The notes: generated by a model from the letters alone, not told the origin. A stretch of 32,000 nt of DNA from Geotalea uraniireducens Rf4 (GCF_000016745.1 NC_009483.1:1350001-1382000); one strand, 5' to 3'. Shown: positions 1-22,300, numbered from the stretch's first letter. Program-made: numbers and translations.

Positions 1-960
1 AGCCGGGAGAGCAGGGAGCTCGTCGCCCGCTTCGTCCGGTCGGGCTATTTCGACGTTACGGAGTACGTAAGCAGTGACCGGCGGGTGCGGGAACTGGTGG
101 ACCGTGGGAATGTGAAGGCTGTGCTCCGGATGAACAGCGGGTTTGCACGGACTCTTGCTGCGGAAAGGTCTGCGCCGGTGCAATTGGTCCTCGACGGCAC
201 CGATTCCAATACCGCTGCCATCGTTCTCAGCCATGCGGGGCGGATAGCCGCCCGTTATACAGAGGACCTCCAGGCGGAGCAGGTGGCCGGAATGATTGGC
301 CGGCAGCCGCGTCTCGGCGGGGTGCGGCTCGAGAGCCGTGCCTGGTTCAACGACAACCTGGAGAGCCGCAACTTCTACGTGCCGGCGGTGATCACCAACA
401 TCGTCTTCATCATCACCATGCTCCTTTCGAGCATGGCGGTGGTGCGGGAGAAGGAGATCGGCACCATGGAGCAGATCATCGTTACCCCGATCACGAAGAG
501 CGAGTTCATTCTCGGCAAGACGATCCCCTTTGTCCTGATCGGCTTCATCGACGTGGGACTTATTTCCGCTGTGGCCGCCTTCTGGTTCCAGGTCCCGATG
601 CGGGGGAGCATCCCGCTCCTGTTCGGCGCCACGGCATTATTCCTCATGAGCTCCCTCGGCATCGGCCTGCTCATCTCGACGGTGAGCCGCACCCAGCAGC
701 AGGCGATGATGAGCGCCTTCTTCGTCATCTTTCCAGCCATGCTCCTGTCCGGTTTTGCCTTTCCCATCGAAAACATGCCGCCGGCGGTCCAGTGGCTCAC
801 CTACCTGAATCCGATCCGTTATTTCCTCGTCATCATCCGTGGGATTTTTCTCAAAGGGGTTGGTGTTGATATCCTTTGGCCGCAATTATCGGCCCTTGCC
901 ATTCTTGGAAGCATTATCCTCTTCTTTGCCGTGCAGCGTTTCCACAAGACCTTAAGCTAA
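1..960 (+). CDS. ABC-2 type transporter permease (YbhR/YbhS-like), 5'-truncated by the window edge
   Basis: Frame 1 is open from nt 1 to the TAA at 958-960, so the true start lies upstream; the ORF-track start at 85 is only the first in-window start codon. The translation has multiple hydrophobic TM segments and the ABC-2-type motif EKEIGTMEQIIVTPI. Confidence 0.85.
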   Translation, partial: SRESRELVARFVRSGYFDVTEYVSSDRRVRELVDRGNVKAVLRMNSGFARTLAAERSAPVQLVLDGTDSNTAAIVLSHAGRIAARYTEDLQAEQVAGMIGRQPRLGGVRLESRAWFNDNLESRNFYVPAVITNIVFIITMLLSSMAVVREKEIGTMEQIIVTPITKSEFILGKTIPFVLIGFIDVGLISAVAAFWFQVPMRGSIPLLFGATALFLMSSLGIGLLISTVSRTQQQAMMSAFFVIFPAMLLSGFAFPIENMPPAVQWLTYLNPIRYFLVIIRGIFLKGVGVDILWPQLSALAILGSIILFFAVQRFHKTLS

Positions 961-1155: not shown

Positions 1156-2622
1156 ATGCCGCGGCTAAGTCCAAGAATCATTGCTACCGTTCCTGCAACG
1201 CTCGACACGCCATCTTCAAAAATCGAGATGGTAATTACCGACCTCGGCCTGAACGGCGCTTATCTCAGGGCGCACTCTCCCTTCCCCGGCAAGAAACTGG
1301 GCGTGGATACCCCGGTTTTGCTGCAATATAACCTCTTCGGGAAAGGACTTTTTGAGCATCGTGGAAATATAATAAGGAAGGATAACGCCGGTTATGCCGT
1401 GAATTTTCCCGGGCTCGATTTTGCCACAAAACGCAAGCTTTGGGAGTTTATCGTCGACAATCTGTCCGATGTGCACGAGTGCCCATTTTGCGGCGAGAGT
1501 TACATCACGATGCCGACCACATGCAAAAGATGCGGCTGGGAACTCAATTTCAACCCTCCGGAGTATTTCAACTACTATGAAAAGAACTGCACGATCAAGA
1601 AATTGCATGAAAGACTGTCCGGCCTGGATATAGAGCAGTTACAGAAAATCGTCAATTTTATCGACATCGATATTGCAAAGGTTATGGGGAGTGAGGAAAT
1701 TCAGGAATTTGTCGGCACAGGCAACGCCATGCTGGAAGTGTTCGCCAATATCAGGAAGGTGGCTCCTACCGACCTCACCGTCTTGGTCCTGGGAGAAAGC
1801 GGCACCGGCAAGGAACTGACAGCCCAGGCAATTCACGATCGGAGTACTCGCAAGGACAAACCCTTCGTAGCGATAAACTGTGCTGCAATTCCGGACAATC
1901 TCCTCGAAGCGGAACTTTTCGGCTATGAAAAGGGGGCGTTTACCGGGGCGCACATCAGCAAAAAGGGGAAATTTGAATTTGCGGACAACGGGACCATTTT
2001 CCTGGATGAGATCGGCGATATGCCTCCCAATCTCCAGGCGAAACTGTTGCGGTTTCTCCAGGACAAGATTGTGGAGAGGATCGGCACCGTCGGCGGGAAG
2101 AAGGTCAATGTGCGGCTTATTGCCGCCACCAACCGTGATCTTGATGCCGCGATTGCCGAGGGGAAGTTCCGAAGTGACCTTTATTACAGGTTGGATGAGT
2201 TTACCATTAATCTTCCCCCGGTCCGGGAACGGGGGGAAGATACGGTAATCCTTGCCAAGTACTTCCTGAACAAGTTTTCCAGGGAAGTCGGCTTGACGAA
2301 GACCTTTACCAAAGATGCTGCCGACGCTATCCGCAATTACGACTGGCCGGGGAATGTCAGGGAGATAATCAACAAGGTGAGAAGGGCGATAGTTATGGCC
2401 GGCGGCAAAACCGTCACTCCCGTGGATTTGCTTCTGGACGTGGCAAAGATGGATGTTGGAGCGGAAAATAATCAGCTGAGCGATGCGTTGGCCCAAATTG
2501 AAAGGGCGAAGATCAAAGAAGTTCTCAAAGGCTGCAGCCATAACCTTTCCAATGCTGCCAGGATGCTGGGGATAAGCCGTCCCACCCTGTACCGTCGCAT
2601 GAAGATTTATGGCATCGATTAG
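1156..2622 (+). CDS. Sigma-54-dependent transcriptional activator (bEBP) with an N-terminal PilZ-like domain and a CxxC...CxxC zinc ribbon; no receiver domain
   Basis: AAA+ sigma-54 interaction domain: Walker A GESGTGKE, the GAFTGA loop (EKGAFTGA), IFLDEIGDM, RLIAATNRDL. C-terminal Fis-type HTH: NAARMLGISRPTLYRRMKIYGI. The N-terminus has RLSPR (RxxxR) followed 22 aa later by DLGLNG (DxSxxG with S to G), a PilZ signature. Zinc ribbon: CPFCGESYITMPTTCKRCG. Confidence 0.9.
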   Translation: MPRLSPRIIATVPATLDTPSSKIEMVITDLGLNGAYLRAHSPFPGKKLGVDTPVLLQYNLFGKGLFEHRGNIIRKDNAGYAVNFPGLDFATKRKLWEFIVDNLSDVHECPFCGESYITMPTTCKRCGWELNFNPPEYFNYYEKNCTIKKLHERLSGLDIEQLQKIVNFIDIDIAKVMGSEEIQEFVGTGNAMLEVFANIRKVAPTDLTVLVLGESGTGKELTAQAIHDRSTRKDKPFVAINCAAIPDNLLEAELFGYEKGAFTGAHISKKGKFEFADNGTIFLDEIGDMPPNLQAKLLRFLQDKIVERIGTVGGKKVNVRLIAATNRDLDAAIAEGKFRSDLYYRLDEFTINLPPVRERGEDTVILAKYFLNKFSREVGLTKTFTKDAADAIRNYDWPGNVREIINKVRRAIVMAGGKTVTPVDLLLDVAKMDVGAENNQLSDALAQIERAKIKEVLKGCSHNLSNAARMLGISRPTLYRRMKIYGID

Positions 2623-2852: not shown

Positions 2853-2867
2853 TGGCACAGCAATTGC
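2853..2867 (+). promoter_or_regulatory. Sigma-54 (RpoN) -24/-12 promoter
   Basis: TGGCAC (2853-2858), agcaa, TTGC (2864-2867) is an exact match to the TGGCAC-N5-TTGC core. It lies about 60 nt upstream of the ATG at 2927 and about 230 nt downstream of a sigma-54 activator gene. Confidence 0.8.
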
Positions 2868-2926: not shown

Positions 2927-3958
2927 ATGAAAACGAGAGAAAAGAGAATAATTGTTTCATTGGCCCTTGCCCTTGCTTTAGGACTCGGAACTCAAGCCTT
3001 CGCGCTGGATGAGGTCGAGGTAACTGGTAACGATCTTGTCGGCGCAGTGGACGGGGGGACCTCCGCCAATGACGATGCCACCGCCGTCGGGCAGAATTCA
3101 CTGAACGATAATACTGTCATCGGAGAAATTGAGGTAGACAAGTCGACCGAGACTGCCACCCAGAACGGCAGCGAGAACGAGGCGGAAGATGGGAGCGCGG
3201 CGGCCAACAACAGCTCTATTGCTGTCGGCGAGATTGAATTGGACAAGTCGACCAATGACAGCAACAACAACAACTCCAACCAGGACAACAGCTTAGGTAA
3301 AACGCAGGTTGCAGTGGAAGTGGAAGACAGTTTCAACGACAGTTCCGACAACTCCAACCAGGACAATATCACAGATTCATTTAACGACAAGGCCGAAGCT
3401 GAAGGTGACGGCATATCGCTGGTCGATTCCGAAGAAGTGATCGTTACCAAAGATTCCTTCAACGGCAATATAGGTGAGGTTGAGGGCGGAAGCGTTGCAG
3501 CGACGAATGGTGGGACCGCTACCATGACCGACAGCTACAACGAAGACGAGAGCATCAATGCAACAGCCGACAGAGGTGGCATTGCGGTCAATTCTGACGA
3601 GGAAGTCGAAATAGAAGTCGCCGAAGATTCTTTCAACAACAAAGCGGAAGAGGGGAGCGTAGCGATTTACGGCGATAATGAAGACGATATCGAAATCGCA
3701 TCCCACAACACCATCAACAGCGACAATGAAACCACTACAGTCACGGTGGGTAATGTAGTCATCGAAGTTGCTTCAAGCGTTCTGGCTGGTGAGGTTACCG
3801 CCAACACGTTAGTCGCTACTCCTACTCTCGACTTAATTACCGGCGAAAACGAAATAGACGGCGCCTCTGTGAACACGGCCGGTATCTCGGTGATATCGCA
3901 GAACAGCGGTATTCAGTCCCAGGTGCAGCAGGCTGTAACGGTTCAGTATAACCAATAG
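2927..3958 (+). CDS. Secreted, highly acidic low-complexity repeat protein (343 aa) with a C-terminal QNSG-motif domain; family unknown
   Basis: RBS AAGGAGG about 7 nt upstream. Sec signal peptide MKTREKRIIVSLALALALGLGTQAFA. The body is D/E/N/S-rich with GEIE(V/L)DKST x2 and DSFN/DSYN x5, and has no Cys or Trp. C-terminus: ...ITGENEIDGASVNTAGISVISQNSGIQSQVQQAVTVQYNQ. Confidence 0.8.
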   Translation: MKTREKRIIVSLALALALGLGTQAFALDEVEVTGNDLVGAVDGGTSANDDATAVGQNSLNDNTVIGEIEVDKSTETATQNGSENEAEDGSAAANNSSIAVGEIELDKSTNDSNNNNSNQDNSLGKTQVAVEVEDSFNDSSDNSNQDNITDSFNDKAEAEGDGISLVDSEEVIVTKDSFNGNIGEVEGGSVAATNGGTATMTDSYNEDESINATADRGGIAVNSDEEVEIEVAEDSFNNKAEEGSVAIYGDNEDDIEIASHNTINSDNETTTVTVGNVVIEVASSVLAGEVTANTLVATPTLDLITGENEIDGASVNTAGISVISQNSGIQSQVQQAVTVQYNQ

Positions 3959-3975
3959 TCAGCTGTCAGTATTTG

Positions 3976-4015
3976 CCCGGTGGCGCGCAATAAGGCCGTC
4001 ACCGGGAGCATTTTT
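3976..4015 (+). terminator. Possible intercistronic attenuator/partial terminator after the first secreted-protein gene
   Basis: CCCGGTG (3976-3982) pairs with CACCGGG (4000-4006), followed by agcaTTTTT (4011-4015). Modest stem with a large loop. Confidence 0.3.
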
Positions 4016-4066
4016 AACCGAAGCCTGAAAATCCTGGAGCAACACATAATAACAGGAGGCAGGGAA

Positions 4067-4471
4067 ATGCGAAGATCAACTAAATCTCTGATTGCCGCAC
4101 TGGTTTTTTCCGGCAGCGCTTTTCTGGCGCAGGGTTCTTCGGCAAATGAGATCGATCTGGCTTCGGCCGGGCAGATGGATGCATTAAACGAGTCCGGATT
4201 GGGGCAAGCGGTATCTAACGAGAACCTGGGAACGCTAACCGGTCGCGAGGATGTGAATATCAACCAATTGGACATGCAGATAAGCACCTCGGACCAGAAA
4301 GCCCAAGCGAACGGTAACAGCCTTAGTAACTATGGCACAATCGCCAACGGCGCCAACACCCTCGGCGGGAATGCCTTTTCTCAATCCACCGGGATAGTTA
4401 CCGTGATTCAGAACTCGGGCAATCAGGTCCTCATTCAGAACGATATGATCCTGAATTTAACGGTAAAATAA
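4067..4471 (+). CDS. Small secreted protein (134 aa) with a C-terminal QNSG-motif domain; family unknown
   Basis: AGGAGG at 4054-4059, 7 nt before the ATG at 4067; the ORF-track start at 3980 lacks these signals. Signal peptide MRRSTKSLIAALVFSGSAFLAQGSSA. C-terminus: GANTLGGNAFSQSTGIVTVIQNSGNQVLIQNDMILNLTVK. Confidence 0.75.
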   Translation: MRRSTKSLIAALVFSGSAFLAQGSSANEIDLASAGQMDALNESGLGQAVSNENLGTLTGREDVNINQLDMQISTSDQKAQANGNSLSNYGTIANGANTLGGNAFSQSTGIVTVIQNSGNQVLIQNDMILNLTVK

Positions 4472-4472
4472 G

Positions 4473-5183
4473 ATGGATGCCATGAAATGGTTTCTGATAA
4501 AACTTAGTAAACTTCTTGTTTTTTCAGCTTTTCTGTCAGCGACGTCGCCGGCTCAGGCGGGTACCGTAATTGTGCCCGGTGTGTCCGGCGGCGGTTTTAT
4601 GGTTAAGGTGACGAGCTTGAAGGAAGCGCGCTTCCGTTCCACGATTCTCCAGCAATACGATTTCAGTTGCGGCTCCGCGGCGCTGGCCACCCTGTTGACC
4701 TACCACTATGAGGACAAAGTCAGTGAACAGGATGTATTCAAGTTCATGTTCGACACGGGAGACCAGGAGAAGATTCGCAAAAACGGCTTTTCGCTGCTTG
4801 ATATGAAGAATTACCTTGAGGCCAACGGCTACAGGGCTGCCGGCTACCAAATTACCCTTGACAAGCTGGCGGAGATTGGCGTGCCTGCCATTGTTCTGAT
4901 CAACATCAAGGGCTATAAGCATTTTGTGGTGGTCAAGGGGATTTCGGCGAAAATGGTGTTGTTGTCAGACCCGGCTGCGGGTGCCAGAACCATTCCGCGT
5001 GCCGAGTTCGAGTCTATGTGGAATGGGCTCATATTTATAATATTAAACAAAAAGAACGTAGCAAAAAACCACTTCAACCGCGACCAGGAATGGCACGTCA
5101 AAGAAAAGGCTCCTTTGGGATTGGCTTTAAATGCCAGAGAGCTGGCCAATGTGACCTTGATGCTGCCGGGGGTATTACGATGA
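4473..5183 (+). CDS. Periplasmic C39-family (bacteriocin-processing type) cysteine peptidase-like protein, standalone with its own signal peptide
   Basis: The start ATG is 1 nt after the upstream stop. Signal peptide ...LVFSAFLSATSPAQA. C39 signature order Q...C...H...D: LQQYDFSCGSAALATLLTYHY (Cys), GYKHFVVVKG (His), VLLSDPAAG (Asp). There is no ABC transporter domain. Confidence 0.85.
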   Translation: MDAMKWFLIKLSKLLVFSAFLSATSPAQAGTVIVPGVSGGGFMVKVTSLKEARFRSTILQQYDFSCGSAALATLLTYHYEDKVSEQDVFKFMFDTGDQEKIRKNGFSLLDMKNYLEANGYRAAGYQITLDKLAEIGVPAIVLINIKGYKHFVVVKGISAKMVLLSDPAAGARTIPRAEFESMWNGLIFIILNKKNVAKNHFNRDQEWHVKEKAPLGLALNARELANVTLMLPGVLR

Positions 5184-5695
5184 AAACAGCAATGAATAAA
5201 CATGTGTTGAGAGCCGTCCTGTTAATGGCAACAGTTATGGCGGCAAGTCATTCGGCTTATGCGGATTCAGTTGCATGCGGCGATTGCAGTTTCGTCACGG
5301 ACCTGGAGCTGGAAAATATTCGCGGGGGATTTGTTTCCGGCGACGGGCTGGAGATTACCTTCGGCATCGAAAAGACAGTTTTTGTCAACGGCGTGCTGCA
5401 GGCAATCAACACCTTGAATATGCAGAAGTGGGGCTCAGAGCAGAGTCAGACTTTGTCTGACCAGGTTCTTTCCAATATGGCGATCTTGCGTCAGAACGGC
5501 GACAACAACAGTATTGTGCCGAATTTAGTCGCCAACTCGCAAGGAGGGTTTTTTACGTATATCCAGAACAGCGTGGATAACACGGTCATTAAAAACGTAA
5601 CCCAGATCAATGCCACCGTAAATGCCCTCAATATGTTCCGCGATATGAACCTGAAGTCAATGATGAATCAACAGTTGCTCAATGCGATGAAGTAA
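5180..5695 (+). CDS. Small secreted protein (171 aa) with a double-glycine-leader-like propeptide and a degenerate QNS motif; family unknown
   Basis: The ATG at 5180 overlaps the peptidase stop (ATGA). Signal peptide MKTAMNKHVLRAVLLMATVMAASHSAYA, then DSVACGDCSFVTDLELENIRGG/FVSGDG. Later motif: GGFFTYIQNSVDNTVIKNVTQINATV. The ORF-track start at 5018 lies inside the peptidase gene and was rejected. Confidence 0.75.
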   Translation: MKTAMNKHVLRAVLLMATVMAASHSAYADSVACGDCSFVTDLELENIRGGFVSGDGLEITFGIEKTVFVNGVLQAINTLNMQKWGSEQSQTLSDQVLSNMAILRQNGDNNSIVPNLVANSQGGFFTYIQNSVDNTVIKNVTQINATVNALNMFRDMNLKSMMNQQLLNAMK

Positions 5696-5785: not shown

Positions 5786-6997
5786 CTATTTGCCGCCCAG
5801 CAGGAAACTGGTCGGTATCCGCACCGTCAATTGCACATTGGGGGAGGTTGGCGTAAGCCCCGCCCCGAGAGAAAAGTTGATGGCTGTTTTGTCGGTCAGC
5901 TTGTAAGAACAGCCAAGCAGGAGGCTACCTACCTGGGTGATGGTCGAACCGGCTATTTCATGTCCGTTCTGTTTCGCTTTGCCGAGGATGATATGGTCGT
6001 AGCCGATGCTGAAAGAGGCTTTTTCGTTGAGCGCTACGCCGATACCGAAGTTGAAGCCGATGGTGTCGCCCGGGTCCAGTTTACCCTGACCGGAGATTTC
6101 GCGATCCATATTCCACATATAGCTAAGCGTGCCGAAAAAGACTGCCGGATCTGAGGCCCAAATTGCGGTTATGCCGGGCTGGATGGCCCAGAAGCCCGAT
6201 CCGGTGGGGAGTTCGGTCTGCAACGGCACCCCTGACGGACTTGTGACAGTAGAGTCGGTAGAGACTTCAAACGGGTTTTTGCCGGTAATGGACTTGGCGC
6301 GCAGGCTGGCAATGAAAAAAGGCCCATTGCCGCCTGGTTGATTAAGCTGGAATCGAGGGCCGAATTCCACATCGCCGATGTTGTTCCCCTCGGCGTTGAA
6401 AACGGTTGGTGGGATCGTTTTGCCACTCGGATCTTTTGTCGGTTCAAACGATGTGGAATCTGCACGGTATACGTACGGGACCCTGACCTCGAATTCCAGA
6501 CGGTTGGTGATGCCGTAGCGTGCTGCGAGAGAGGCTACATAGGTGTTGCTGTTGACATTCCTGACATCGATGAGTCCGATGGTAAACGAAGGAATGATGG
6601 TGTAGCCGCTCAAGGCCACCCGGTTGGATGACGAGTTCACAAACTGGAAAGACGGTTCCAGTACAAGCGTTCCCTTTGGCGTCAATACTCCCGGCTGTTC
6701 GAAGATCGTGGCGATGTCAGGTGGCTTGCCTTCCTTGGGTTTCTCCGGCGGCTGGCCGACCGATTGGGGAGGGGGCGGTTCTTTCTTTGGATCGGATTTC
6801 TGTTGTGTCGGCGAGCTTTCATTCGGATCGGTCTTGTTCTGGTCAGACTTGTTCTGGCTCAGAGTATGAGTTTCTTCGGCACTGTGAGTTTTGTTCGTGC
6901 CGGGAGCAGAAGTTTCTTCACCGAAGGCCGGCGCGCTTGCCAACAACGCACATGCCAGGCAGACGCAGGCGACAATCTTCGATCGATGTGAAGTCAT
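5786..6997 (-). CDS. Outer-membrane beta-barrel protein (403 aa) with a long Pro/Lys/Gln/Ser-rich N-terminal linker; family not assigned (loosely reminiscent of MetA-pathway/transporter-type barrels)
   Basis: An internal ATG (6997-6995) is preceded by a GGGGGG RBS and gives the signal peptide MTSHRSKIVACVCLACALLASAPAFG. About 90 aa of low-complexity linker follow (…KSDPKKEPPPPQSVGQPPEKPKEGKPPD), then about 300 aa of alternating hydrophobic beta-strand pattern. The C-terminal residue is not aromatic. Confidence 0.7.
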   Translation of the reverse strand: MTSHRSKIVACVCLACALLASAPAFGEETSAPGTNKTHSAEETHTLSQNKSDQNKTDPNESSPTQQKSDPKKEPPPPQSVGQPPEKPKEGKPPDIATIFEQPGVLTPKGTLVLEPSFQFVNSSSNRVALSGYTIIPSFTIGLIDVRNVNSNTYVASLAARYGITNRLEFEVRVPYVYRADSTSFEPTKDPSGKTIPPTVFNAEGNNIGDVEFGPRFQLNQPGGNGPFFIASLRAKSITGKNPFEVSTDSTVTSPSGVPLQTELPTGSGFWAIQPGITAIWASDPAVFFGTLSYMWNMDREISGQGKLDPGDTIGFNFGIGVALNEKASFSIGYDHIILGKAKQNGHEIAGSTITQVGSLLLGCSYKLTDKTAINFSLGAGLTPTSPNVQLTVRIPTSFLLGGK

Positions 6998-7116: not shown

Positions 7117-7199
7117 ATACGTCTAATAAGTGGTAGCCCAATAGTTATTCTTTGATCCGGTTTTGTCTCTCAAATTTGTTATTCGATGGGGGGAATGAA

Positions 7200-7541
7200 A
7201 TGGATATGAATCGATTCCGTGAAAAAAAGCTGTTTTGGTTAATCGTATGCTATGGGCTAATTTCCCTGATTTTTAGCGTCAATTGCTTCGCCGACGAGGC
7301 TGACGTCGGCTTTAACAGTTACCCCGAGCTCCCGGATTTGTCCTCTGACAGAGCAGTGCCGGACCTTTTCACCGGTACGATGAACTATGCGATCCCGATT
7401 AAGGCGCCGCCGGGCCGTAATGGGATGAGCCCTAACATAGCTCTAACCTACCGGAGCAGTAACGGCAACGGCCCGATCGGCATGGGGTGGGAAATTGAGA
7501 TGGGTGCAATTCAGCGCTCCACGCGCGGCGGTGTCGACTAA
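7200..7541 (+). CDS. Signal peptide plus the N-terminal part of an SpvB/TcaC-type (Tc toxin B-subunit N-terminal) domain; out of frame with the downstream RHS body
   Basis: GGGGGGA RBS, then ATG at 7200. Signal peptide MDMNRFREKKLFWLIVCYGLISLIFSVNCFA. SpvB-N signature: TGTMNYAIPIKAPPGRNGMSPNIALTYRSSNGNGPIGMGWEIEMGAIQRSTRGG. Stops at the TAA 7539-7541 in frame 3, while the RHS body is in frame 1 (open from 7447). Confidence 0.7.
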   Translation: MDMNRFREKKLFWLIVCYGLISLIFSVNCFADEADVGFNSYPELPDLSSDRAVPDLFTGTMNYAIPIKAPPGRNGMSPNIALTYRSSNGNGPIGMGWEIEMGAIQRSTRGGVD

Positions 7542-10500
7542 ACAGTCGTCTATTTCAAGCGGATGGCCGGATCAGACTTGGACCGGTCCGACCATATCTT
7601 CCACAGTATATGGTAACCCTGTAGCCAATCAATGTTTAGCCGGCGATTTCGAGGGTGACGGAAGGACCGACATAGTCTGCTATCCCGGCAACGGTGGGAC
7701 TTGGAATATGGCTCTATCCGGATTAGCAACAGAAACTGGGTGGTCTTCCATTATGTCCTGGTCCGGACCGACGCTTAATACAGGCTCTCCTACTGTCAGT
7801 GCCGGCTATGACTGTCTGACCGGCGATTTCGATGGTGACGGAAAAACCGATCTGACCTGCTGGGGCGGAAGCAGTACTTGGTATATGGCGTTATCTTCAA
7901 CAAGAACCGGCGCCGGATGGCAGACCCAGAACTGGGCTGGCCCAACGTTAACATTTTCGAACGTAGCTATTCTTGTGCCCGACAAATGTATAACCGGCGA
8001 TTTCAATGGCGACGGAAAGACAGCCCTGGCCTGCTTCGACAGCGGTGCATGGACATTGGCCTTATCCACTGGAAGAAGCTGGGAAGTTCCGAGCTGGAAT
8101 GGGGGCCCGGCAATTAGTCCAAATCTATCCATCAGAGATCAATGTATTTGGGGCGATTTCAACGGTGATGGGGTAACCGACGCGGCCTGCTATACCGGGG
8201 CATCGCCTTATAACTGGAATATGACACTGTCAATCTCAAACGCATGGATGCATCAGGATTTGGAAGGTCCAATACTGCAGAACTCCCATGTCGGCTATCA
8301 GTGTCTGACCGGCGACTTCAACGGCGACGGGAAAACCGACTTTGCCTGCCTCGATAACTATGGTTCCGGCAGCGGTGGAACCTGGAATGTGGCATTATCA
8401 TATGGAACCGGCTGGTATCAAAAGTATTTGCAGTGGGAGGGTCCGGCACCAAAACCAGATGTCCCCGTCGGCAGGCAGTGCACGGTCGGCGATTTCGACG
8501 GTAACGGGAAAACAGACGTGGCGTGCTATTCAGGCATCGGCGGAGCTTGGAATGTGGCTCTGTCATACGACGATCATTACTGGACAACCGACTTACTCAC
8601 CTCGATTTACAACGGTCTCGGCTCAAAAACCGACATCGAATACTGGCCTTCAACAGCTAGTGATCCGAATATTCAGCTTCCATGGCTGGACCATCATAAT
8701 CCCCGCCTTCCCTTTCCTGTCCATACAGTCCACTCCGTAACGACGTGCGACAACTACACAAGTTCAAGCTGTGTCGGCAATTCATCCGTGACAAACTACA
8801 GTTTTGCCGGCGGGTTCTATCAAATCTACGAACACGACTTTCGAGGGTTCAATTATGCGAAGGTCACCGGCCCTGCGGGGCCGGACGGTGAACAGAAAAT
8901 AGTCGAGACATGGTTCCACCAGGGAGACGACTTGGCTGTTGATGCGAATGATCCTGGCGCGCTATATGATGACACGAAGGGGAAACCGTACCGTACCCGC
9001 GTCTCAGGAATTGCGAATGGACAGGCGCTCGCAACGTACTCTGAGGTGGAGACAACCTATACTACCGTGGCTGATGCCTATCATGTAGCCCCAGGCCAGA
9101 TAGACATATACTGCTGCGCAGATGGCGTCTCAGGTGCATGTAAGGGCAGCACCAATGCCCGACATACGCAGACTTCTTACACCTATGATCAATACGGCAA
9201 CGTGAAGCGTGAAAACCAATACGGCGACGTAAGCGACCCAACCGATGACCGCACTGTTCTCAGAGGTTACGTCCAAAATCAAGACGCCTGGATCGTGGGC
9301 CTTCTCTCCAGTGAAACCGTTTATCAAGGCATTGGTCTGCAAACTCCGGTTTCCTCCACAAATTATGACTATGACGGGGCTACCGATTGCTCGACTTATT
9401 CGCCGACCACGTCACCGGTGAAGGGCAACCTCACCCGTGCCGTCCGTTGGTATAATGGGGGGACGAACACGGAGACCTGGACAAGATATGACGGTTACGG
9501 CAACCCAGTTTGCAGCAAGGATGCAAATGACAATATCACCAGAGTAAGCTACGACAACACTTTTACTTTCCCCAAAATAAGCACCAATCCCTTGGAACAG
9601 CCGACAACCACCCAGTATTACGGCGTGGATGGTGTACCTGCGGATTATGGACTCTATGGCCAGATAAAGAGCATCACTGACCCTAACAACGCTGTGACTT
9701 CTTATGAATATGATCGTTTCGGCAGAAGAACCAAAGCAAACAGGCCGAACTTCGAATGGACGGAGTGGAGGTATAATAGTTTCGGTACGGTCGGCTATCA
9801 GCATGTGCGGGTCAATACCTCCGCCGGCTTCTGGTCTGAGGATTATTTTGACGGTCTGGGGCGGACGTTCAAGGAAAGGAAGAGTGGGCCGGATGCGAAG
9901 ACCATTGTTGCCGACACCCGGTATGACAGACGCGGAGCCGTAGCGCAGGCGTCGCTCCCCTATTTCGAAGGAACTGAGACACCCAGGTACAAGTTGTTCA
10001 CCTACGATCCGATGGGCCGCGTAACACAGGCGACCAGCCCTGACCCGAACATTCGGATATTGTCCTGCTTTGATGAAGGGGTTATGGTGACCATCGACCC
10101 CAACAACCACCGCAAGCGGGAGAGCAGGGACGTTTACGGCCGCCTCGTGAAGGTGGAGGAATACACCGGGACCTATGCCGCCTGTTCGACGGAGGCAGGG
10201 ACCCCGTATGCAACTACCAGCTACAGTTACGACGTGCTGGGGAACCTCCGTTTCGTGACCGACACCAAGGGGAACCAGACCGAGATGCGCTACGACACCC
10301 TCGGTCGTAAATACTACATGAAAGACCCTGACATGGGTGCGTGGAGCTATGGCTACGCCGCAAACGGCAACCTGACTGCCCAAACAGATGCCGATAGCCA
10401 GACCATCCGGTTCACCTACGACCCGTTGAACAGGATCACCCTTAAGGACTACCCCAGCGGCACAGACGTCGTCTATACCTATGACGAATCATTTTCCTCA

Positions 10501-12261
10501 AACCCCCTGGGTCGCCTCACCACCATGACCGACGAGTCGGGAAACACTAAATATTTCTACGACTCGTTAGGGAGGATTACAAAAACAGTTAAGACAGTGG
10601 ATGGGAAAAGCTATACGATCGAAGTTGGGTACACAAAGTTCGACAGGATCTGGTACATTAATTACCCGGACACTGAGCAAGTCCTCTACGAATATGACAC
10701 GGGCGGAAACATCTACAAGGTGGGTAACTACGCCACTTTTACCAATTACAACGCCCTCGGTCAGCCGGGCTCCCTCAACTTCGGCAACGGCGTGAGCACC
10801 ATTTATCAGTACTATCCCCTCAACAACCGCCTTTACTCAATCACCACCAACAGCCCGACCCAGGGCCTCATCAACCTTTCCTATGGCTACGACAATCAGG
10901 GAAACATCACCAGCATCACCGATCACCTCAACGCGTCCATCCCGCACAACTTCACTGGCAGAAGCTTCACCCTCTATCCAGGCAAGGCTCACGCCTACGG
11001 CATCACCGGCACAGGTTTCCAGTACGGCCCCAGCGGGAACATGACCAACAACGGTCAGTACAGCATCCTCTACACCTACGACAACATGCCCCGTTCCATA
11101 GGGGGGGCGGTAAGCTACGTCTACGACGGCAACGGAAGCAGGGTGAAGAAGATCACCCCTGCAACCACAAGGACTTACTTGGATAAGTTCTATGAGTGCG
11201 TTGGAGATGTCTGCGGCAAATACATATTTGCCGGTAATACCAGGATTGTGCTGAAGAGTTCCTTGGGGACCTATTACTACCACCAGGACCACCTGGGGAG
11301 CACCGTTGCAGCGACCGACACGGGCGGCAACAAGGCGGAAAACATCGCCTATTATCCCTTCGGTGAAAGCAGGTCGGATACCGGCAGCACTGGGGTGATC
11401 CACAAATACACCTCGCAGGAGCTGGACTATGAGACAGGGCTCTACAACTACAACGCACGGCTGTATTATCCGGAGATCGGGAGGTTTATTACTGCGGATA
11501 CGATTGTGCCTGATTATGCGAATCCGCAGAGTCTGAACAGGTACGCTTATGTTCAAAATAATCCTATGAATTATGTGGATCCAACTGGTCATGAAGATAT
11601 TTATATTCTTAGAGATGTTTTTGAATTGTCGAATATACAAACAGGTCCTTCACTAGCTGATACCTTTATCGAAGATTTGCCAGGGGATGCCAACGGATTA
11701 TATTTGCCATATCCGTATTTAGGTGAAGTCAATACGGGGACACCTTTCCTCAATTCAGCTGTAAATGGGGTTATCTCAGACTTCTCAACAGCCGCTTATT
11801 ATGGAAATATTACTTATAGTATTCTCGGCTTAAATAATGTCAATCTACAAGATCTGAGCAGGGCCAATGACTACCTAACCGCTGGGTCTCTAGCACTCAT
11901 GCTATTTCCTCCTACAGCTCCTTTTGGTGCGGCCGCGCTCACAACAACTGGTTTAGTTGGCGTAAGTTTAGGCGTTACGGAGGGTATTATAACAAGTAGT
12001 GCCAATAAAATATTATCAAGTGCGGCTGAGTTCAGCATAGGGATGGGAGCAGGAAGATTGGCAAGGAGAGTAGCTGGCCTAACTGCTGTTAAATTCAATT
12101 TTAAGGCGAGCAGATACTATTCAGAGGCAACAGGTAGATTCGTAAGAACTAGTACAGGTCTAAACAGCTCCCAATTAAAAGAAGGAGCAGGGGCAATTTC
12201 TTCAATACCGTTCAAGCTGTCTCCCAATAATGACCCTTCTCAAGCAGGAGGTAGGCAATAG
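7495..12261 (+). CDS. Fused TcB/TcC-like RHS (YD-repeat) polymorphic toxin: six FG-GAP/VCBS-type repeats, a TcdB-middle-like region, YD repeats, an RHS core and a variable C-terminal toxin domain
   Basis: Six repeats of about 48 aa ending C-x-x-GDF-[DNE]-G-[DN]-G-x-T-[DA]-x-x-C. TcdB-mid-like segments: LTSIYNGLGSKTDIEYWPST, YEHDFRGFNYAKV, ETWFHQGD. More than 12 YD repeats (YTYDQYGNV, YEYDRFGRR, YSYDVLGNL, YGYDNQGNI ...). RHS core: YYYHQDHLGSTVAATD...YYPFGE...YNARLYYPEIGRFITADT...NRYAYVQNNPMNYVDPTGHE. The true start is uncertain; the 7495 TTG is only the ORF-track start. Confidence 0.9.
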   Translation: MRWVQFSAPRAAVSTKQSSISSGWPDQTWTGPTISSTVYGNPVANQCLAGDFEGDGRTDIVCYPGNGGTWNMALSGLATETGWSSIMSWSGPTLNTGSPTVSAGYDCLTGDFDGDGKTDLTCWGGSSTWYMALSSTRTGAGWQTQNWAGPTLTFSNVAILVPDKCITGDFNGDGKTALACFDSGAWTLALSTGRSWEVPSWNGGPAISPNLSIRDQCIWGDFNGDGVTDAACYTGASPYNWNMTLSISNAWMHQDLEGPILQNSHVGYQCLTGDFNGDGKTDFACLDNYGSGSGGTWNVALSYGTGWYQKYLQWEGPAPKPDVPVGRQCTVGDFDGNGKTDVACYSGIGGAWNVALSYDDHYWTTDLLTSIYNGLGSKTDIEYWPSTASDPNIQLPWLDHHNPRLPFPVHTVHSVTTCDNYTSSSCVGNSSVTNYSFAGGFYQIYEHDFRGFNYAKVTGPAGPDGEQKIVETWFHQGDDLAVDANDPGALYDDTKGKPYRTRVSGIANGQALATYSEVETTYTTVADAYHVAPGQIDIYCCADGVSGACKGSTNARHTQTSYTYDQYGNVKRENQYGDVSDPTDDRTVLRGYVQNQDAWIVGLLSSETVYQGIGLQTPVSSTNYDYDGATDCSTYSPTTSPVKGNLTRAVRWYNGGTNTETWTRYDGYGNPVCSKDANDNITRVSYDNTFTFPKISTNPLEQPTTTQYYGVDGVPADYGLYGQIKSITDPNNAVTSYEYDRFGRRTKANRPNFEWTEWRYNSFGTVGYQHVRVNTSAGFWSEDYFDGLGRTFKERKSGPDAKTIVADTRYDRRGAVAQASLPYFEGTETPRYKLFTYDPMGRVTQATSPDPNIRILSCFDEGVMVTIDPNNHRKRESRDVYGRLVKVEEYTGTYAACSTEAGTPYATTSYSYDVLGNLRFVTDTKGNQTEMRYDTLGRKYYMKDPDMGAWSYGYAANGNLTAQTDADSQTIRFTYDPLNRITLKDYPSGTDVVYTYDESFSSNPLGRLTTMTDESGNTKYFYDSLGRITKTVKTVDGKSYTIEVGYTKFDRIWYINYPDTEQVLYEYDTGGNIYKVGNYATFTNYNALGQPGSLNFGNGVSTIYQYYPLNNRLYSITTNSPTQGLINLSYGYDNQGNITSITDHLNASIPHNFTGRSFTLYPGKAHAYGITGTGFQYGPSGNMTNNGQYSILYTYDNMPRSIGGAVSYVYDGNGSRVKKITPATTRTYLDKFYECVGDVCGKYIFAGNTRIVLKSSLGTYYYHQDHLGSTVAATDTGGNKAENIAYYPFGESRSDTGSTGVIHKYTSQELDYETGLYNYNARLYYPEIGRFITADTIVPDYANPQSLNRYAYVQNNPMNYVDPTGHEDIYILRDVFELSNIQTGPSLADTFIEDLPGDANGLYLPYPYLGEVNTGTPFLNSAVNGVISDFSTAAYYGNITYSILGLNNVNLQDLSRANDYLTAGSLALMLFPPTAPFGAAALTTTGLVGVSLGVTEGIITSSANKILSSAAEFSIGMGAGRLARRVAGLTAVKFNFKASRYYSEATGRFVRTSTGLNSSQLKEGAGAISSIPFKLSPNNDPSQAGGRQ

Positions 12262-13401: not shown

Positions 13402-16400
13402 TTGACACGGGTGGACTATGACGATGGGACATATATTGCTTACACTTATGACGAGATTGGGAATCGGCTAAATACTACTACAAATGCTCCCAGCGATACT
13501 ACCCCGCCGACGGGGACAGTCGCAATAAACGGCGGATCGCCTGTCACCACTTCAACTGCCGTAACACTTTCGCTTAGCTGCAGCGATGCTAACGGCTGCG
13601 CTCAAATGCAATTCAGTAACGATAACGCAACTTGGTCGACGGTGGAAGCTTTTACGTCCACAAAGGCCTGGACATTGATCACAGGAGAAGGCGCAAAGAC
13701 AGTCTATGTAAAATTCAAGGATACTGTCGGGAACTGGTCAACCGCAGTCGGTGATGCCATCGTGTTTGACACAACAGCCCCAACAACCACCGCTTCGCCT
13801 ACAGGGGGGACATACACTACATCTTTATCGGTGACCCTGATGTGCAACGACGGGACAGGAGGCGGTTGCGACAAAATCTACTATACGACCGACGGCACAA
13901 TACCCACGACGTCATCGAGCGTTTATTCAGCCCCAATACCCATGTCAGAGCCTACAACATTGAAATTTCTCGCGATAGACCTCGCCGGCTACAGCGAAGC
14001 GGTGAAGACGCAGACCTACACAATCGACACTATGCGGCCGACCGGTTCAGTATCAATTAACGGAGGTGCAAATTATACCAACGCTTCAACCGTAACATTA
14101 ACCCTTTCCTGCACTGACAATTCAGGTTGTGACTATATGGAAATCTCGAACTATAACACTGTCTGGCAGGGACCATATGCGACAACCAAGGTATGGACTC
14201 TTCTTCCATCAGGAGACGGCGCCAAGACAGTCTACGTCAACTTCAGGGATACGGCGGGCAACTGGATGTCAACTTCCGTCAGTGCCACCATTGTGCTCGA
14301 TACAACGGTCCCGGTGACCACCGTTTCGCCGACAGAGGGGACGTATAACGCCACCAAGTTGGTGACCCTGACATGCGGTGACGGGACGGGAGCAGGGTGC
14401 GACAAAATCTACTATACAACGGACGGTACAACGCCAACCACTGCATCGAGCGTTTATGCAGGAGCAATAACCGTAGCAGCAACCACGACACTGAAGTACT
14501 TCGCCACCGACGCTGCCGGCAACAGCGAAGCAGTGAAAAGTAAAGCATACATCATAGACACGACGCTGCCGGTAACTACTGTTTCACCGGCAGGAGGGGC
14601 GTACAATACCAGCCAGACGATATCCCTGACCTGCAGCGACGGCGCAGGAACAGGTTGTGATAAGATCTATTACACAACCAATGGTACAACCCCAACCACG
14701 TCGTCGAGCGTCTATTCAACCCCAATATCCGTGTCAACGACTACGACATTGAAGTTCTTTGCAACAGACCTTGCCGGTAACACTGAGGTTGTGAAAAACC
14801 AGACTTACACTATCGATATAACACCGCCGACCGGCACCGTAACGATCAATGCTGGAGCAAACTATACCAACACCGCGGCCGCAACGTTGACCCTTTCCTG
14901 CAACGACAGTGTTGGTTGCGACCAGATGCAGTTCAGCAACGACAACGCGAGCTGGTCGTCGCCTGAAACGCATATGACAACCAAGGTGTGGACCTTGGTC
15001 CTAGGAGATGGCACCAAGACCGTCTACGCCAAATTCAAGGACATGGCGGGCAACTGGTCAACCGCCGTCAGCGACACAATCGTATTTGATGCAACTGCAC
15101 CGGTGACCACCGCTTCGCCGGCGGGAGGGGTGTATAACGCCGCCAAGTCGGTAACTATGACATGCGGTGACGGGACGGGAGCAGGGTGCGACAAAATCTA
15201 CTATACAACCGACGGTACGACACCAACCACTGCATCGAGCGTTTATTCAGGAGCAATAACCGTAGCTGCAACCGCGACACTGAAGTACTTCGCGACCGAC
15301 CTTGTCGGAAACAGCGAAACGGTTAAGTCCCAGACTTACACCATCGACACTACGCCTCCGGTGACTGCCGCTTCACCTGGTAGCGGCGCATACAATACCA
15401 GCCAGACAGTGACCCTGGCCTGTAATGACGGTGTTGGTTCAGGTTGCGACAAAATTTACTACACAACTAACGGAGCCACCCCAACCACGTCATCGAGTGT
15501 CTATTCAACCCCGGTAACCGTGTCCGCGACCACGACGTTGAAGTTTTTTGCAACAGACCTCGTCGGCAACAACGAAACAGTGAAGACCCAGACCTATACC
15601 ATCGACACAACGCCGCCGACCGGCACCATCACAGTCAATAGTGGGGCAGCTTATGTCACAGCAGCAAACGTGACGCTGGCCCTTTCCTGCACCGACAGTG
15701 TTGGTTGCAGCCAGATGCAGTTCAGTAACGACAATTCCAACTGGTCGTCGCCTGAGTCATACGCGACGACCAAGGCGTGGACCCTGGCCACCGGAGACGG
15801 AAACAAAACGGTGTACGTCAAGTTCAAGGATACGGCGGGCAACTGGTCAACAGTTTACAGCGATACTATTTTGCTTGACGCAACAGCACCGGTAACAACC
15901 GCTTCACCTGCCGGAGGGTTCTACAATACCAGCAAGACTGTGACCCTGACGAGTAACGACGGTGCCGGGTTGGGCGTTGACAAGATTTACTATACCATCG
16001 ACGGCACCACCCCCACCACATCGTCGAGCGTCTATGCAGACCCGATTAACATTACGGCCACAACCACCTTGAAGTTTTTTGCCACCGACCTGGCCGGCCA
16101 CACAGAGACGGTGAAAACCAAGACCTACACCATTGACGTCATTGCGCCAACCGTAACCATTACTTCTCCTGCACTTGGCACAACCAACGACAATTCTCCC
16201 CTTCTGACCTATACTACAAATGACGGAACGTGGGTGTCTAATGTTGTAGTCAAGGTGGATGGCGTTATCGTAAGCAAGGTTTCCGGTTACAGTCTGGCTC
16301 CATTGGCTGATGGCATCCATACCGTACGGGTAGAAGCAACTGATTTGGCTGGCAATACCGGCTTTGCCGAAGTAGTCTTTACGGTTGCCCTTGCCTTTAC

Positions 16401-19344: not shown

Positions 19345-22300
19345 ATGCACGGTTTGGTTGCTCATAAAAATCTATTTTTTGTGCTGCTTTTCATCACGAT
19401 TCTTTTGAGTGTGAACGAGGTTTATGCGCTTACCATAGACTCCGTAAAACGCACAAGTCCAGCCGAGCCAACCACCAACGCGGCGAGCGTCGACTACACG
19501 GTCATCTTCAGCGAAGCAGTCACTGGCCTTACGGCGAGCAACTTCACCGTGCCGGTGACCGGCATAAGCGGTGCAGGGGTGACCTCGGTCACCGGCTCTG
19601 GGACCACTTGGACGGCTACCGTAGGAACCGGGAGCGGCGACGGTACGCTCGGCTTCACCATGGAGAACTCCACAGGGGTCACGGACACGGTGGGCAACGC
19701 CGTGGCCAACCTTCCATTCGACGGAGAGATTTACACCATCGACAAAACCGTGCCGACGGTGACCATTGGCTCGACGGCAGCGAATCCGACCAGTGTCTCT
19801 CCCCTCCCGGTCACTGTTACCTTCAGCGAGGCGGTGACCGGCTTTACGGCTGAAGATATCGTCGTCGGCAACGGCACGGCTGGAGCCTTTGCTGGTAGCG
19901 GCGCCACCTATACCTTTAACGTAACCCCCACAGCCAACGGTCCGGTGACTGTCGATATCGCCGCCGGGGCCGCCTTGGATGCGGCCGGCAACGGCAACAG
20001 CGCGGCAGTGCAGTTCAGCCGCAATTATGACAATTCTGCGCCGACGGTGACCATCGGCTCGACCGCAGCCGATCCGACCAGGGTCTCTCCCATCCCCGTG
20101 ACGGTCACCTTCAGCGAGGCAGTGACCGGGTTTGCGGCTGAAGATATCGTCGTCGGCAACGGCACTGCCGGAGCCTTTGCTGGTAGCGGCGCCACCTATA
20201 CCTTTAACGTAACCCCCACGGCCAACGGTCCGGTGACCGTCGATATCGCCGCCGGGGCCGCCTTGGATGCGGCCGGCAACGGCAACAGCGCGGCAGTGCA
20301 GTTCAGCCGCAATTATGACAATACGACGCCGACGGTGACCATCGGCTCGATGGCAGCCGATCCGACCAATGTCTCTCCCATCCCCGTGACGGTCACCTTC
20401 AGCGAGGCGGTGACCGGGTTTGCGGCTGAAGATATCGTCGTCGGCAACGGCACTGCCGGAGCCTTTGCTGGTAGCGGCGCTACCTATACCTTTAACGTAA
20501 CCCCCACGGCCACCGGTCCGGTGACCGTCGATATCGCCTCCGGGGCCGCCCAGGATGCTGCCGGCAACGGCAACAGCGCCGCTTCCCAGTTGAGCCGCAA
20601 TTATGACAATACTGTGCCGACGGTGACCATCGGCTCGACGGCAGCCAATCCGACCAACGTCTCTCCCATCACCGTGACTGTCACCTTCAGCGAGGCGGTG
20701 ACCGGGTTTGCGGCAGGAGATATAACCGTCGGCAACGGCACGGTGACGTCCGGCTCCTTCACCGGAAGCGGTGCCACGTACACCTTTAGCGTCATCCCCA
20801 CCGCCAACGGAGCGATGACTGTCGCTATCGCCGCCGGTGTCGCCCAAGATGCGGCCGGCAACGGCAACAGCGCGGCAGTGCAGTTCAGCCGCAATTATGA
20901 CAATACTGTGCCGACGGTGACCATCGGCTCGACGGCAGCCAATCCGACCAGGGTCTCTCCCATCCCCGTGACGGTCACCTTCAGCGAGGCGGTGATCGGG
21001 TTTGCGGCAGGAGATATAACCGTCGGCAACGGCACGGTGACGTCCGGCTCCTTTGCCGGGAGCGGTGCCACGTACACCTTTAGCGTCACCCCCACCGCCA
21101 ACGGAGCGGTGACCGTCGATGTCGCCGTTGGTGTCGCCCAGGATGCGGCCGGCAACGGTAACAGCGCCTCCTCCCGGTTCAGCCGGATTTACGACAATAC
21201 CGCGCCGACCATGGACGCCGCCGCATCATACGTAAACTCGACCCATGTGGATGTGACCTTCAGCGAGGGGGTTATTGGCGCAGATGTTGCCGCAAACTAC
21301 ACCGCACCCGGTCTGACCATAACTGCGGCAGTATCACAGGGGGGCGCCACGTATCGTCTAACCACCAGTCTCCAGGGAATAGGAACCACCTATAACATAA
21401 CCGCCAACAACATCTCCGACCCGGCGGGCAACGCCCTGAGCAGCAGCGACAAGACCGCAACCTTCACCAGGACTTCAGCCTCGAACTCCGCTCCGACCAC
21501 ACCGACCCTCAACGCGCCGCCAAACGGGACTTTCAATGTTAATGAAGTCAACACGCTCACTCCCACCCTTGCAGTCAATAACTCAACCGATGTTGACCTG
21601 GACCCACTGAGCTACACCTTTGTGGTAGACACGGTCAACACCTTTGACAGCCCCAATAAAAAGACATCAACCCTTGTCCCCTCCGGGGCCGGCACAACGA
21701 GTTGGACCATTCCATCATCGTCTCCGCTTGTTGACAACACCACCTGGTACTGGCGCGTCACGGCTACCGACGGCAACAAGGGTTCCTCCCCCTCACAGAC
21801 GGGCAGCTTCTTCGTCAACACCGTCAACGACGCGCCTGCCGGCCTTGCCGTCAGCTCACCCACCAACGACCCCAAAACAGAGGTAACGGACCTGCAGCCT
21901 CTCCTCACCGTCACCAACGCGACGGATCTGGATAACGACACTCTCACCTACGAATTTGAGGTAGCCACGGACGGCAGCTTTACAAACGTCGTGGCAAAGG
22001 CGGTCACTGGTGTTGCGCAGGGCACGGCCGGGACTACTACCTGGAAAGTATCGCCCGCGCTTAACGACAACACCCAGTACCACTGGAGGAGCAGGGCAAA
22101 AGACCAGCACGGGTTGCCCGACAGCAGTTATAGTGGCTGGGTGACCGCCACATTCTTCACCAATACGAGCAACGACGCGCCGTCTGCCCCGACGGTCAAC
22201 GCACCGCTGAACAATAATGAAATATCCACCACGCTCACCCCCACGCTCACGATCAACAATTCCACGGATCCGGACCGGGACCCTCTGACCTATACCTTCG

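Follow-up and report, generated by a model that had tools for sequence, protein, structure and literature searches.

A conserved C-terminal module shared by three secreted proteins of a divergent Fap-like locus in Geotalea uraniireducens

Our study concerns a cluster of genes for secreted proteins in a 32,000-nucleotide stretch of the Geotalea uraniireducens Rf4 genome (GCF_000016745.1, NC_009483.1:1350001-1382000), referred to below as the window and numbered from its first letter. Genes A, B, a C39 peptidase gene and D follow one another in that order on the + strand, while a gene for an outer-membrane barrel lies divergent to them on the - strand. In the map of open reading frames (ORFs) the stop of B abuts the start of the peptidase gene and the start of D overlaps the peptidase stop; sequences resembling ribosome-binding sites stand 5' of A and of B. 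An earlier note on this DNA, made from the sequence alone, had drawn attention to a C-terminal motif common to A, B and D. Here we report that this motif marks a module shared by the three proteins and by a large protein family, and that the locus is best regarded as a divergent, unannotated Fap-like system with a subunit family of its own. The features of the locus are collected in the table.

Table. Features of the A-B-C39-D locus and its flanks, in window coordinates.
Feature	Position	Strand	Evidence or remark
Sigma54-dependent transcriptional activator	1156..2622	+	Pfam Sigma54_activat E 8e-71, PilZ E 1.3e-5, HTH_8 E 6e-13
Sigma54 -24/-12 promoter consensus, TGGCACagcaaTTGC	2853..2867	+	60 nt upstream of the A start codon
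Gene A, 343-aa secreted protein	2927..3958	+	signal peptide, acidic low-complexity body, conserved C-terminal region
C-terminal ~70 residues of A, homologous to B by profile	3740..3955	+	hhalign, module HMM
Module in A, 36 residues, TGENEIDGASVNTAGISVISQNSGIQSQVQQAVTVQ	3839-3946	+	
GC-rich hairpin followed by a U-run, between A and B	3974..4016	+	RNA fold -26.3 kcal/mol
Gene B, 134-aa secreted protein, the most conserved	4067..4471	+	1303 family representatives; module HMM E 9.4e-16
Leader-like motif in B, VSNENLGTLTGR	4211-4246	+	
Module in B, NGANTLGGNAFSQSTGIVTVIQNSGNQVLIQNDMILNL	4346-4459	+	
C39 cysteine peptidase, 236 aa, periplasmic, stand-alone, FapD homologue by profile	4473..5183	+	Pfam Peptidase_C39 E 1.4e-23
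Gene D, 171-aa secreted FapE-like protein	5180..5695	+	hhalign against Pseudomonas FapE; leader motif; module HMM
Double-glycine-type leader in D, VTDLELENIRGG	5294-5329	+	
Module in D	5504-5614	+	
Outer-membrane beta-barrel, FapF homologue by profile	5786..6997	-	NCBIfam FapF E 1.4e-44; PDB 5O67

The peptides in which the motif had been recognized, GISVISQNSGIQSQVQQAVTV (3881-3945), GIVTVIQNSGNQVLIQN (4391-4441) and FFTYIQNSVDNTVIKN (5549-5596), are all present where the earlier note had placed them, and each is in frame with an ORF that encodes a signal peptide (A, B and D, respectively). Compared as single sequences, by Smith-Waterman scores against composition-matched shuffles, their likeness is borderline: the observed score was reached in 36 of 2000 shuffles for the C-termini of A and B, in 13 of 2000 for those of B and D, and in 1 of 1000 for B and D at full length, while the C-termini of A and D gave no significant score (1854 of 2000 shuffles reached it). 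Family profiles, on the other hand, set the motif clearly apart from composition. A profile hidden Markov model (HMM) of the module, which has 38 positions and the consensus TGSNSISGNAFSNASGIATVIQNSGNQVLIQNSTIVNV (in reduced form TGxNxIxxxAFSxxxGIxTVIQNSGNQVLIQNxxIxNV, rich in Q, N, G and S), was run iteratively against 15,856 sequences until it converged and gave E-values of 9.4e-16 for B, 2.8e-8 for A and 2.2e-7 for D. In profile-profile alignment by hhalign the C-terminus of A matched the broad B family at a probability of 97.3% (E 1.8e-11) over 71 columns, and D matched B, with signal peptides removed, at 96.8% (P 2e-10) over 31 columns. The direct hhalign comparison of A with D was not significant, and the two are thus linked through B. 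Judged by these profiles, the modules of A, B and D are homologous, and the shared C-terminal motif is real. Its extent in A and B had been put at about 40 residues; the alignment gives about 70, with a further motif, V.I..V.....S.L.G.V..N, ahead of the terminal module, so that the description of the three proteins as otherwise dissimilar is not quite right for this pair. An end-to-end homology of B and D was considered and dropped, since a match of 97.5% over 121 columns shrank to the 31-column module once the signal peptides were taken away.

We give next to no weight to the view that the similarity arose by chance or as a compositional artefact of low-complexity sequence rich in Q, N, S and G. 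It can appeal to the weakness of the single-sequence comparisons and to the pair A and D, which is not significant even profile to profile, but it is refuted by the profiles, with E-values from 1e-7 to 1e-16 in 15,856 sequences and hhalign probabilities above 96% for both A-B and D-B, together with a synteny in which the conserved positions and the gene order recur across hundreds of clusters.

The breadth of the family is seen in a search of 1.84 billion representative proteins with the B-family profile, which gave 1303 matches at E<=1e-3, of which 517 reached E<=1e-10, the 1303 representatives being clusters at 50% identity. Most are secreted proteins of 110-150 residues, and named members, among them those of Achromobacter and Crenobacter, are annotated as hypothetical proteins or, in UniRef, as 'Adhesin'. 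The close relatives of B make up 49 clusters, all of Geobacteraceae type (for example Geotalea daltonii Geob_1787, and Geomesophilobacter); B is 73% identical to a protein from a Geobacteraceae metagenome-assembled genome and 57% identical to the G. daltonii protein. Seven of seven B homologues, that of G. daltonii included, lie in the order A, B, C39, D and FapF-like gene, usually with a sigma54 activator. A wider sample consisted of 79 independent metagenome loci fetched by module pattern, with only those loci counted that had sufficient flank: a C39 gene lies directly downstream of B in 58 of 61, a D-type gene near B in 35 of 35, a FapF-type gene near B in 24 of 24, and an A-type gene upstream of B in 29 of 43. 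The family thus exists, at 1303 clusters, and lies beside the C39 peptidase gene almost without exception, the point on which the earlier note had proposed a check. Two loci (L113 and L117) show a variant order, A-B-D-A-C39-FapF-like, with two A-type paralogues. Our literature search returned nothing on Geob_1786-1790 or on the B family. Word-indexed searches with A and D recovered only close relatives (6 proteins for A and 7 for D), and further A and D sequences were taken from the genes neighbouring B homologues.

The secreted proteins differ in how far they vary. Across 21 B proteins a run of 14 consecutive residues, TVIQNSGNQVLIQN, is invariant, with identity elsewhere at 40-55%. This invariance is peculiar to the module of B; the same module varies freely in A and D. 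Protein A has the acidic body that had been ascribed to it (D+E 24%, K+R 3%, pI about 4.05), and its homologues in the same gene position range from 136 to 869 residues, with bodies that are acidic or of N/T/S/G-rich low complexity. The A bodies are hypervariable, from none to more than 700 residues, against a near-invariant B; this, the breadth of the family and the C39 synteny fit the description of A as the decorated, variable member and B as the minimal one. One A-type protein (L090:6526-6936) has only 136 residues and consists of a signal peptide, a short linker and the module, and the low-complexity body is thus dispensable in some lineages. Tandem Repeats Finder detected no DNA repeats in gene A. 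The signal peptides of A, B, D and the peptidase were judged by inspection.

The peptidase and the barrel relate the locus to the functional amyloid (Fap) system of Pseudomonas. Reference fap operons were found through the FapF sequence of the PDB alignment and their FapA to FapF confirmed by NCBIfam; the canonical sequences compared here all come from the Pseudomonas fluorescens group. The best NCBIfam match of the peptidase is FapD (E 4.3e-49, 166.8 bits, against an equivalog cut-off of 330 bits), and an alignment shows Cys66, His150 and Asp166 to be invariant with Pseudomonas FapD; the peptidase also has a signal peptide of its own. The barrel matches NCBIfam FapF at 152.6 bits (E 1.4e-44; cut-off 700 bits), the FapF structure 5O67 at E 3.5e-32 over 303 residues (residues 94-396) and Pfam Phenol_MetA_deg at E 1e-8; its N-terminal linker is rich in Pro, Lys and Glu and, by eye, has no coiled coil in this copy. 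By these scores the two proteins are homologues, and not equivalogs, of FapD and FapF, and we propose that the barrel would act as the secretion channel. D has the same gene position as fapE, with the peptidase gene on one side and the barrel gene on the other, and the D family aligns with Pseudomonas FapE by hhalign at 85.9% (E 5e-6), or at 80.4% (P 1.3e-5) without signal peptides, over an N-terminal 25-46 columns. The matched segment follows the signal peptide and reads vsxxELdxxRGGFxxxxgLxisFGIe in D and lkDsEmAeLRGRyVMPGRIISFGIV in FapE; a second match, collinear and weak, falls in the region of the module (NTVIKNVTQINATV against SNFVNNMTQLNVAL, P 0.067). On these grounds D is probably a FapE homologue.

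The earlier note was largely right in its inference and had overlooked that the peptidase and barrel are homologues of FapD and FapF, that D is FapE-like and that the whole locus is of Fap type. We consider it highly probable that A, B and D are served by a Fap-type secretion system. FapD and FapF are known to belong to larger families (PMC3792158), and co-localized fapD and fapF homologues have been reported in five further phyla (PMC6173800); our literature search found no description of the cargo of such non-canonical fapD/fapF systems.

A substrate for the peptidase is suggested by the N-terminus of D. Directly after the Sec signal, the D family (n=44) carries a leader with L at -7 and G at -2 and -1 in 100% of sequences, R at -3 in 98% and E at -8 in 68%; V or L stands at -12, S or T at -11, M, L or I at -4, and F or Y comes next. 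The leader of D in the window is VTDLELENIRGG, followed by F, and that of a sister copy LSDPELAELRGG, again followed by F. As a pattern match, and not a model score, it agrees with LSxxELxxIxGG, the leader consensus of class II bacteriocins that is listed with C39 proteases (PMC1538908), and Pseudomonas FapE has L..DxE[ML]AELRGR in the same place, with [YF] next. FapE is already suspected to be the substrate of FapD and its N-terminus is missing in vivo, while the FapD substrate is described as still open and the Fap proteins as lacking canonical C39 sequences (PMC5557850, PMC6173800); for Pseudomonas FapE the evidence of leader removal is indirect and from mass spectrometry only (PMC5557850). 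Taken together, the motif and the FapE literature thus single out the leader of D as a concrete candidate for the site at which the C39 peptidase would cut. A double-glycine leader in A was considered and rejected; the conserved N-terminus there is NDLVGAxxGGTxANDGSxAV-like and not ELxxxRGG, and the GG is not conserved.

A C39 peptidase together with an LSxxELxxIxGG-like leader is also the hallmark of the maturation of class II bacteriocins and peptide pheromones, and mature B would have only about 74 residues. B, and perhaps D, could then be precursors akin to bacteriocins or signal peptides, from which the peptidase removes the leader and which the barrel releases as diffusible peptides, with no fibre being formed. 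This is very improbable in our judgment. Sec signals are present on all components, the peptidase is a stand-alone periplasmic enzyme without an ABC transporter domain, the clusters examined have no conserved gene for immunity or for an ABC exporter, and the best matches are to FapD and FapF rather than to bacteriocin exporters. Mature B is moreover acidic, rich in Q, N, G and S and predicted to be disordered, and long A proteins and tandem arrays of the module are unlike a peptide toxin.

These tandem arrays came from the same B-family profile search, which also gave long proteins with 5-17 copies of the module in succession (P0069, P0114, P0200, P0080 and P0130). The three that could be located all have gene neighbourhoods of the type described above: P0114 (L173:500-2551), with 8 modules, occupies the A slot ahead of a B gene and a C39 gene; P0069 (L172:675-3362), with 10, lies between a D-like and a FapF-like gene; and P0200 (L091:8001-11852), with 15, follows a FapF-like gene, and the 8 kb upstream of it contain no C39 gene. 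A module reiterated internally, as are the repeats of CsgA and FapC, resembles a stacking repeat, unlike an address tag, and the arrays favour the former. In the low-confidence AlphaFold2 model of B, computed from a 45-sequence alignment, a single hairpin forms on IVTVIQN-SG-NQVLIQN, with strands at residues 110-116 and 119-125, in agreement with the strand-turn-strand pattern that the earlier note had read from the motif; a short helix forms on the leader-like motif.

The module could instead serve mainly as a C-terminal targeting or docking signal for the FapF-like channel, the C39 peptidase or D, on proteins A, B and D that act separately. Its position, at the very C-terminal end of A and B and close to that end in D, would suit such a signal, the hypervariable bodies of A are what would be expected of passenger domains, and 14 invariant residues in a protein otherwise 40-55% identical exceed the demand of stacking alone. 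A tag, however, would not be reiterated in 5-17 internal copies, those checked being in the same clusters, and the Q/N-rich alternating pattern with its predicted hairpin is typical of cross-beta repeats. We hold this alternative to be unlikely, while noting that one module could serve both as a tag and in polymerization. The supposition of a module common to proteins that are secreted together and go with a C39-like peptidase is supported, while our data do not directly separate polymerization from export recognition. On balance we favour, with some reserve, the module as a polymerization unit; with similar reserve, our preferred account of the whole is that A, B and D would leave the cytoplasm by Sec as the cargo of a divergent system of Fap type for secretion and assembly, and would stack on one another through the module.

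The link from the module to the canonical Fap repeat is weaker. Below the threshold of the module HMM, after weaker A- and D-type ORFs of the related loci, the first other family is FapB (E 0.16), and at this sub-threshold level all three FapB repeats align in register with the model. The B-FapB match pairs xIxGNAFSNASGIvTVIQNSGNQ with AIQGNSFSNGNGILGVNQSAGAN, and a second match falls on another repeat (P 0.011). These alignments are no more than suggestive of homology between the module and the FapB/FapC repeat.

A number of results weigh against a Fap-like, stacking interpretation. Searches of Pfam and NCBIfam, whose models include FapB, FapC and FapE, gave no match at E<=1 for any of A, B and D, and the hhalign match of B to FapB reaches a P of about 1e-3 only. 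Five rounds of the module HMM gathered 363 targets and recruited no Pseudomonas FapB, FapC or FapE, and of 45 B-family members the FapB model matched no more than 2, at best with E 0.004. FapB and FapC of canonical operons have three repeats almost invariably (PMC12822426), whereas A, B and D have one module each; the locus is thus not a member of the canonical Fap systems in the strict sense. The leader-like motif of B is degenerate (L at -7 in 98%, G at -2 in 91%, R or G at -1 in 80%), and without signal peptides the comparison of the B and D leaders is not significant (P 0.65), so that they are related in pattern only. As to structure, the model of B has a predicted local distance difference test (pLDDT) score of 60 and is mostly disordered, and that of P0114, from a 2-sequence alignment, reaches a pLDDT of 39, with strands that recur periodically in a model that is unusable. 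Further null results are that the 45 diverse family members scanned with Pfam and NCBIfam returned noise apart from the two weak FapB matches, and that a PDB sequence search with B alone found no match; the B-family profile touched SoxR in the PDB at E 0.47, which was dismissed as a chance match.

The control of the cluster can be read in part from the DNA ahead of A. The activator gene encodes an N-terminal PilZ domain, a Cys-rich, zinc-ribbon-like CxxC...CxxC stretch, an AAA+ domain and a Fis-type helix-turn-helix, the PilZ domain and the CxxC...CxxC stretch occupying the usual place of a receiver domain. It is the likely regulator of the A-B-C39-D operon, and its PilZ domain hints at control by cyclic di-GMP. 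A sigma54 activator, of PilZ or VpsR type, also flanks the cluster in seven sister loci (L001, L003, L087-L090 and L173); in some of these the VpsR type takes the place of the PilZ type. TGGCAC-N5-TTGC has a single exact match in the 32 kb of the window, at 2853-2867, and we infer that this site acts as the sigma54 promoter of the operon. A perfect sigma54 promoter and a PilZ activator would fit a function in matrix or biofilm formation. The hairpin between A and B has a z-score of -2.36, with 3 of 200 shuffles folding equally well; on this weak evidence it may be a partial terminator that raises A relative to the downstream products and so sets the stoichiometry of the subunits.

Our data, coupled with the published work on FapE, suggest a model for the activity of this locus. 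The PilZ activator, presumably sensing cyclic di-GMP, would drive the sigma54 promoter, and A, B, the peptidase and D would enter the periplasm by the Sec route. There the C39 peptidase may bind, and probably cut, the leader of D and perhaps that of B, licensing export, as the motif and the FapE data suggest; homology points to the FapF-like barrel as the route by which unfolded subunits would then leave the cell. Outside, the C-terminal hairpins of B, A and D would stack into a surface fibre or matrix, in which B may be the minimal, conserved core or nucleator subunit, A a decorated bulk subunit bearing a long acidic or polar brush, and D a FapE-like adaptor subunit. Cleavage, export through the barrel, stacking and the division of roles among the subunits are all drawn from sequence comparison and are put forward as such.

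Fap has been regarded as narrowly distributed and 'fixed', with exactly three repeats per subunit. The locus described here supplies cargo for the non-canonical systems, in the form of a conserved module family that has no Pfam or NCBIfam model, and indicates that a FapD/FapE/FapF core can serve subunits of another architecture, whose modules number from one to many and whose decorated bodies are hypervariable. The leader of the FapE-like protein gives a concrete hypothesis for the target of the essential FapD peptidase. A more far-reaching possibility, which we offer tentatively and regard as doubtful, is that the locus is the founding example of an unannotated sister lineage of Fap, with at least 1300 clusters in Desulfobacterota/Geobacteraceae and Betaproteobacteria (Achromobacter and Crenobacter, for example), subunits of one C-terminal hairpin or, in some lineages, 5-17 in tandem, and a secretion gated by the leader and the C39 peptidase; if so, the FapE motif ELAELRGR would also provide the long-sought substrate and cleavage site of FapD. 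In Geobacteraceae, to speculate, such a surface polymer could matter for biofilm formation or for attachment to electrodes or minerals.

The surrounding region encodes further surface and transport functions. An ABC-2 type transporter permease lies at 85-960 (+), and the same block of ABC-2/ABC transporter genes precedes the cluster in G. daltonii (L001), so that synteny reaches beyond the Fap-like genes. Beyond the barrel gene, an ORF with a SpvB N-terminal domain (7152-7541, +) overlaps in a different frame a 1588-residue ORF with TcdB_toxin_midN, FG-GAP and RHS repeats (7495-12261, +); the pair looks like a split or frameshifted gene of Tc-toxin/RHS type. Two giant surface proteins of 1803 and 1902 residues, with Ig-like, CHB_HEX_C_1 and Fn3_assoc domains, are encoded at 13402-18813 and 19345-25053 (both +), and giant Ig-domain proteins of a similar kind stand beside the homologous clusters in L001, L087 and L088. 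The region may be a conserved cell-surface island.

Among known systems, curli offer a parallel in architecture. CsgA and CsgB are likewise secreted, disordered proteins with Q/N/G/S-rich strand-turn-strand units that stack, as we infer for the module, and curli likewise have a minor, conserved nucleator beside a major subunit, with a number of repeats that differs between lineages. The secretion channel is of another family, and a peptidase is present here. No match of A, B or D to Curlin_rpt was found in Pfam at E<=1, and no CsgG, CsgE or CsgF homologue was found among the window ORFs scanned against Pfam; the likeness to curlin is one of pattern only, as the earlier note had cautioned. With the precursors of class II bacteriocins and peptide pheromones, the D family and FapE share the leader consensus almost to the letter, and here too the neighbouring gene encodes a C39 peptidase whose catalytic triad is intact. 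The leader here stands behind a Sec signal and theirs at the extreme N-terminus; the peptidase here is a 236-residue periplasmic protein with no ABC transporter fusion; and where their cargo is a small cationic peptide, that found here is a protein of matrix type.

The putative Fil pilus of Acinetobacter likewise combines a stand-alone C39 peptidase (FilB) with a FapF-related outer-membrane protein (FilC). The FilB model matches our peptidase at E 9e-35 (120 bits; cut-off 475) and the FilC model our barrel at E 3e-9 (36.8 bits; cut-off 630), both weaker than the FapD and FapF matches and far under their cut-offs, and no Fil-family model is among the NCBIfam matches to A, B and D.

The closest comparison is with the Fap system of Pseudomonas, from which the locus differs in several respects. 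Each subunit here has one C-terminal module, against three imperfect repeats in Pseudomonas, and the motif is GIxTVIQNSGNQVLIQN rather than GNxGxNxxAGxxNQQxN. The gene for the long subunit precedes that for the short one, the barrel gene is divergent and its product, by eye, lacks the coiled coil, regulation involves sigma54 and an activator of PilZ or VpsR type, and the peptidase and barrel score far under the NCBIfam equivalog cut-offs. The two systems nevertheless share a stand-alone periplasmic C39 peptidase with conserved Cys, His and Asp, a FapF-type barrel and a FapE-like protein encoded between them, as well as Sec signal peptides on all components. Both have Q/N-rich secreted subunits, one short and conserved and one long and variable, as in FapB and FapC; FapA is missing here, as it is from many fap operons; and in both the suspected substrate of the peptidase is the FapE-like protein.

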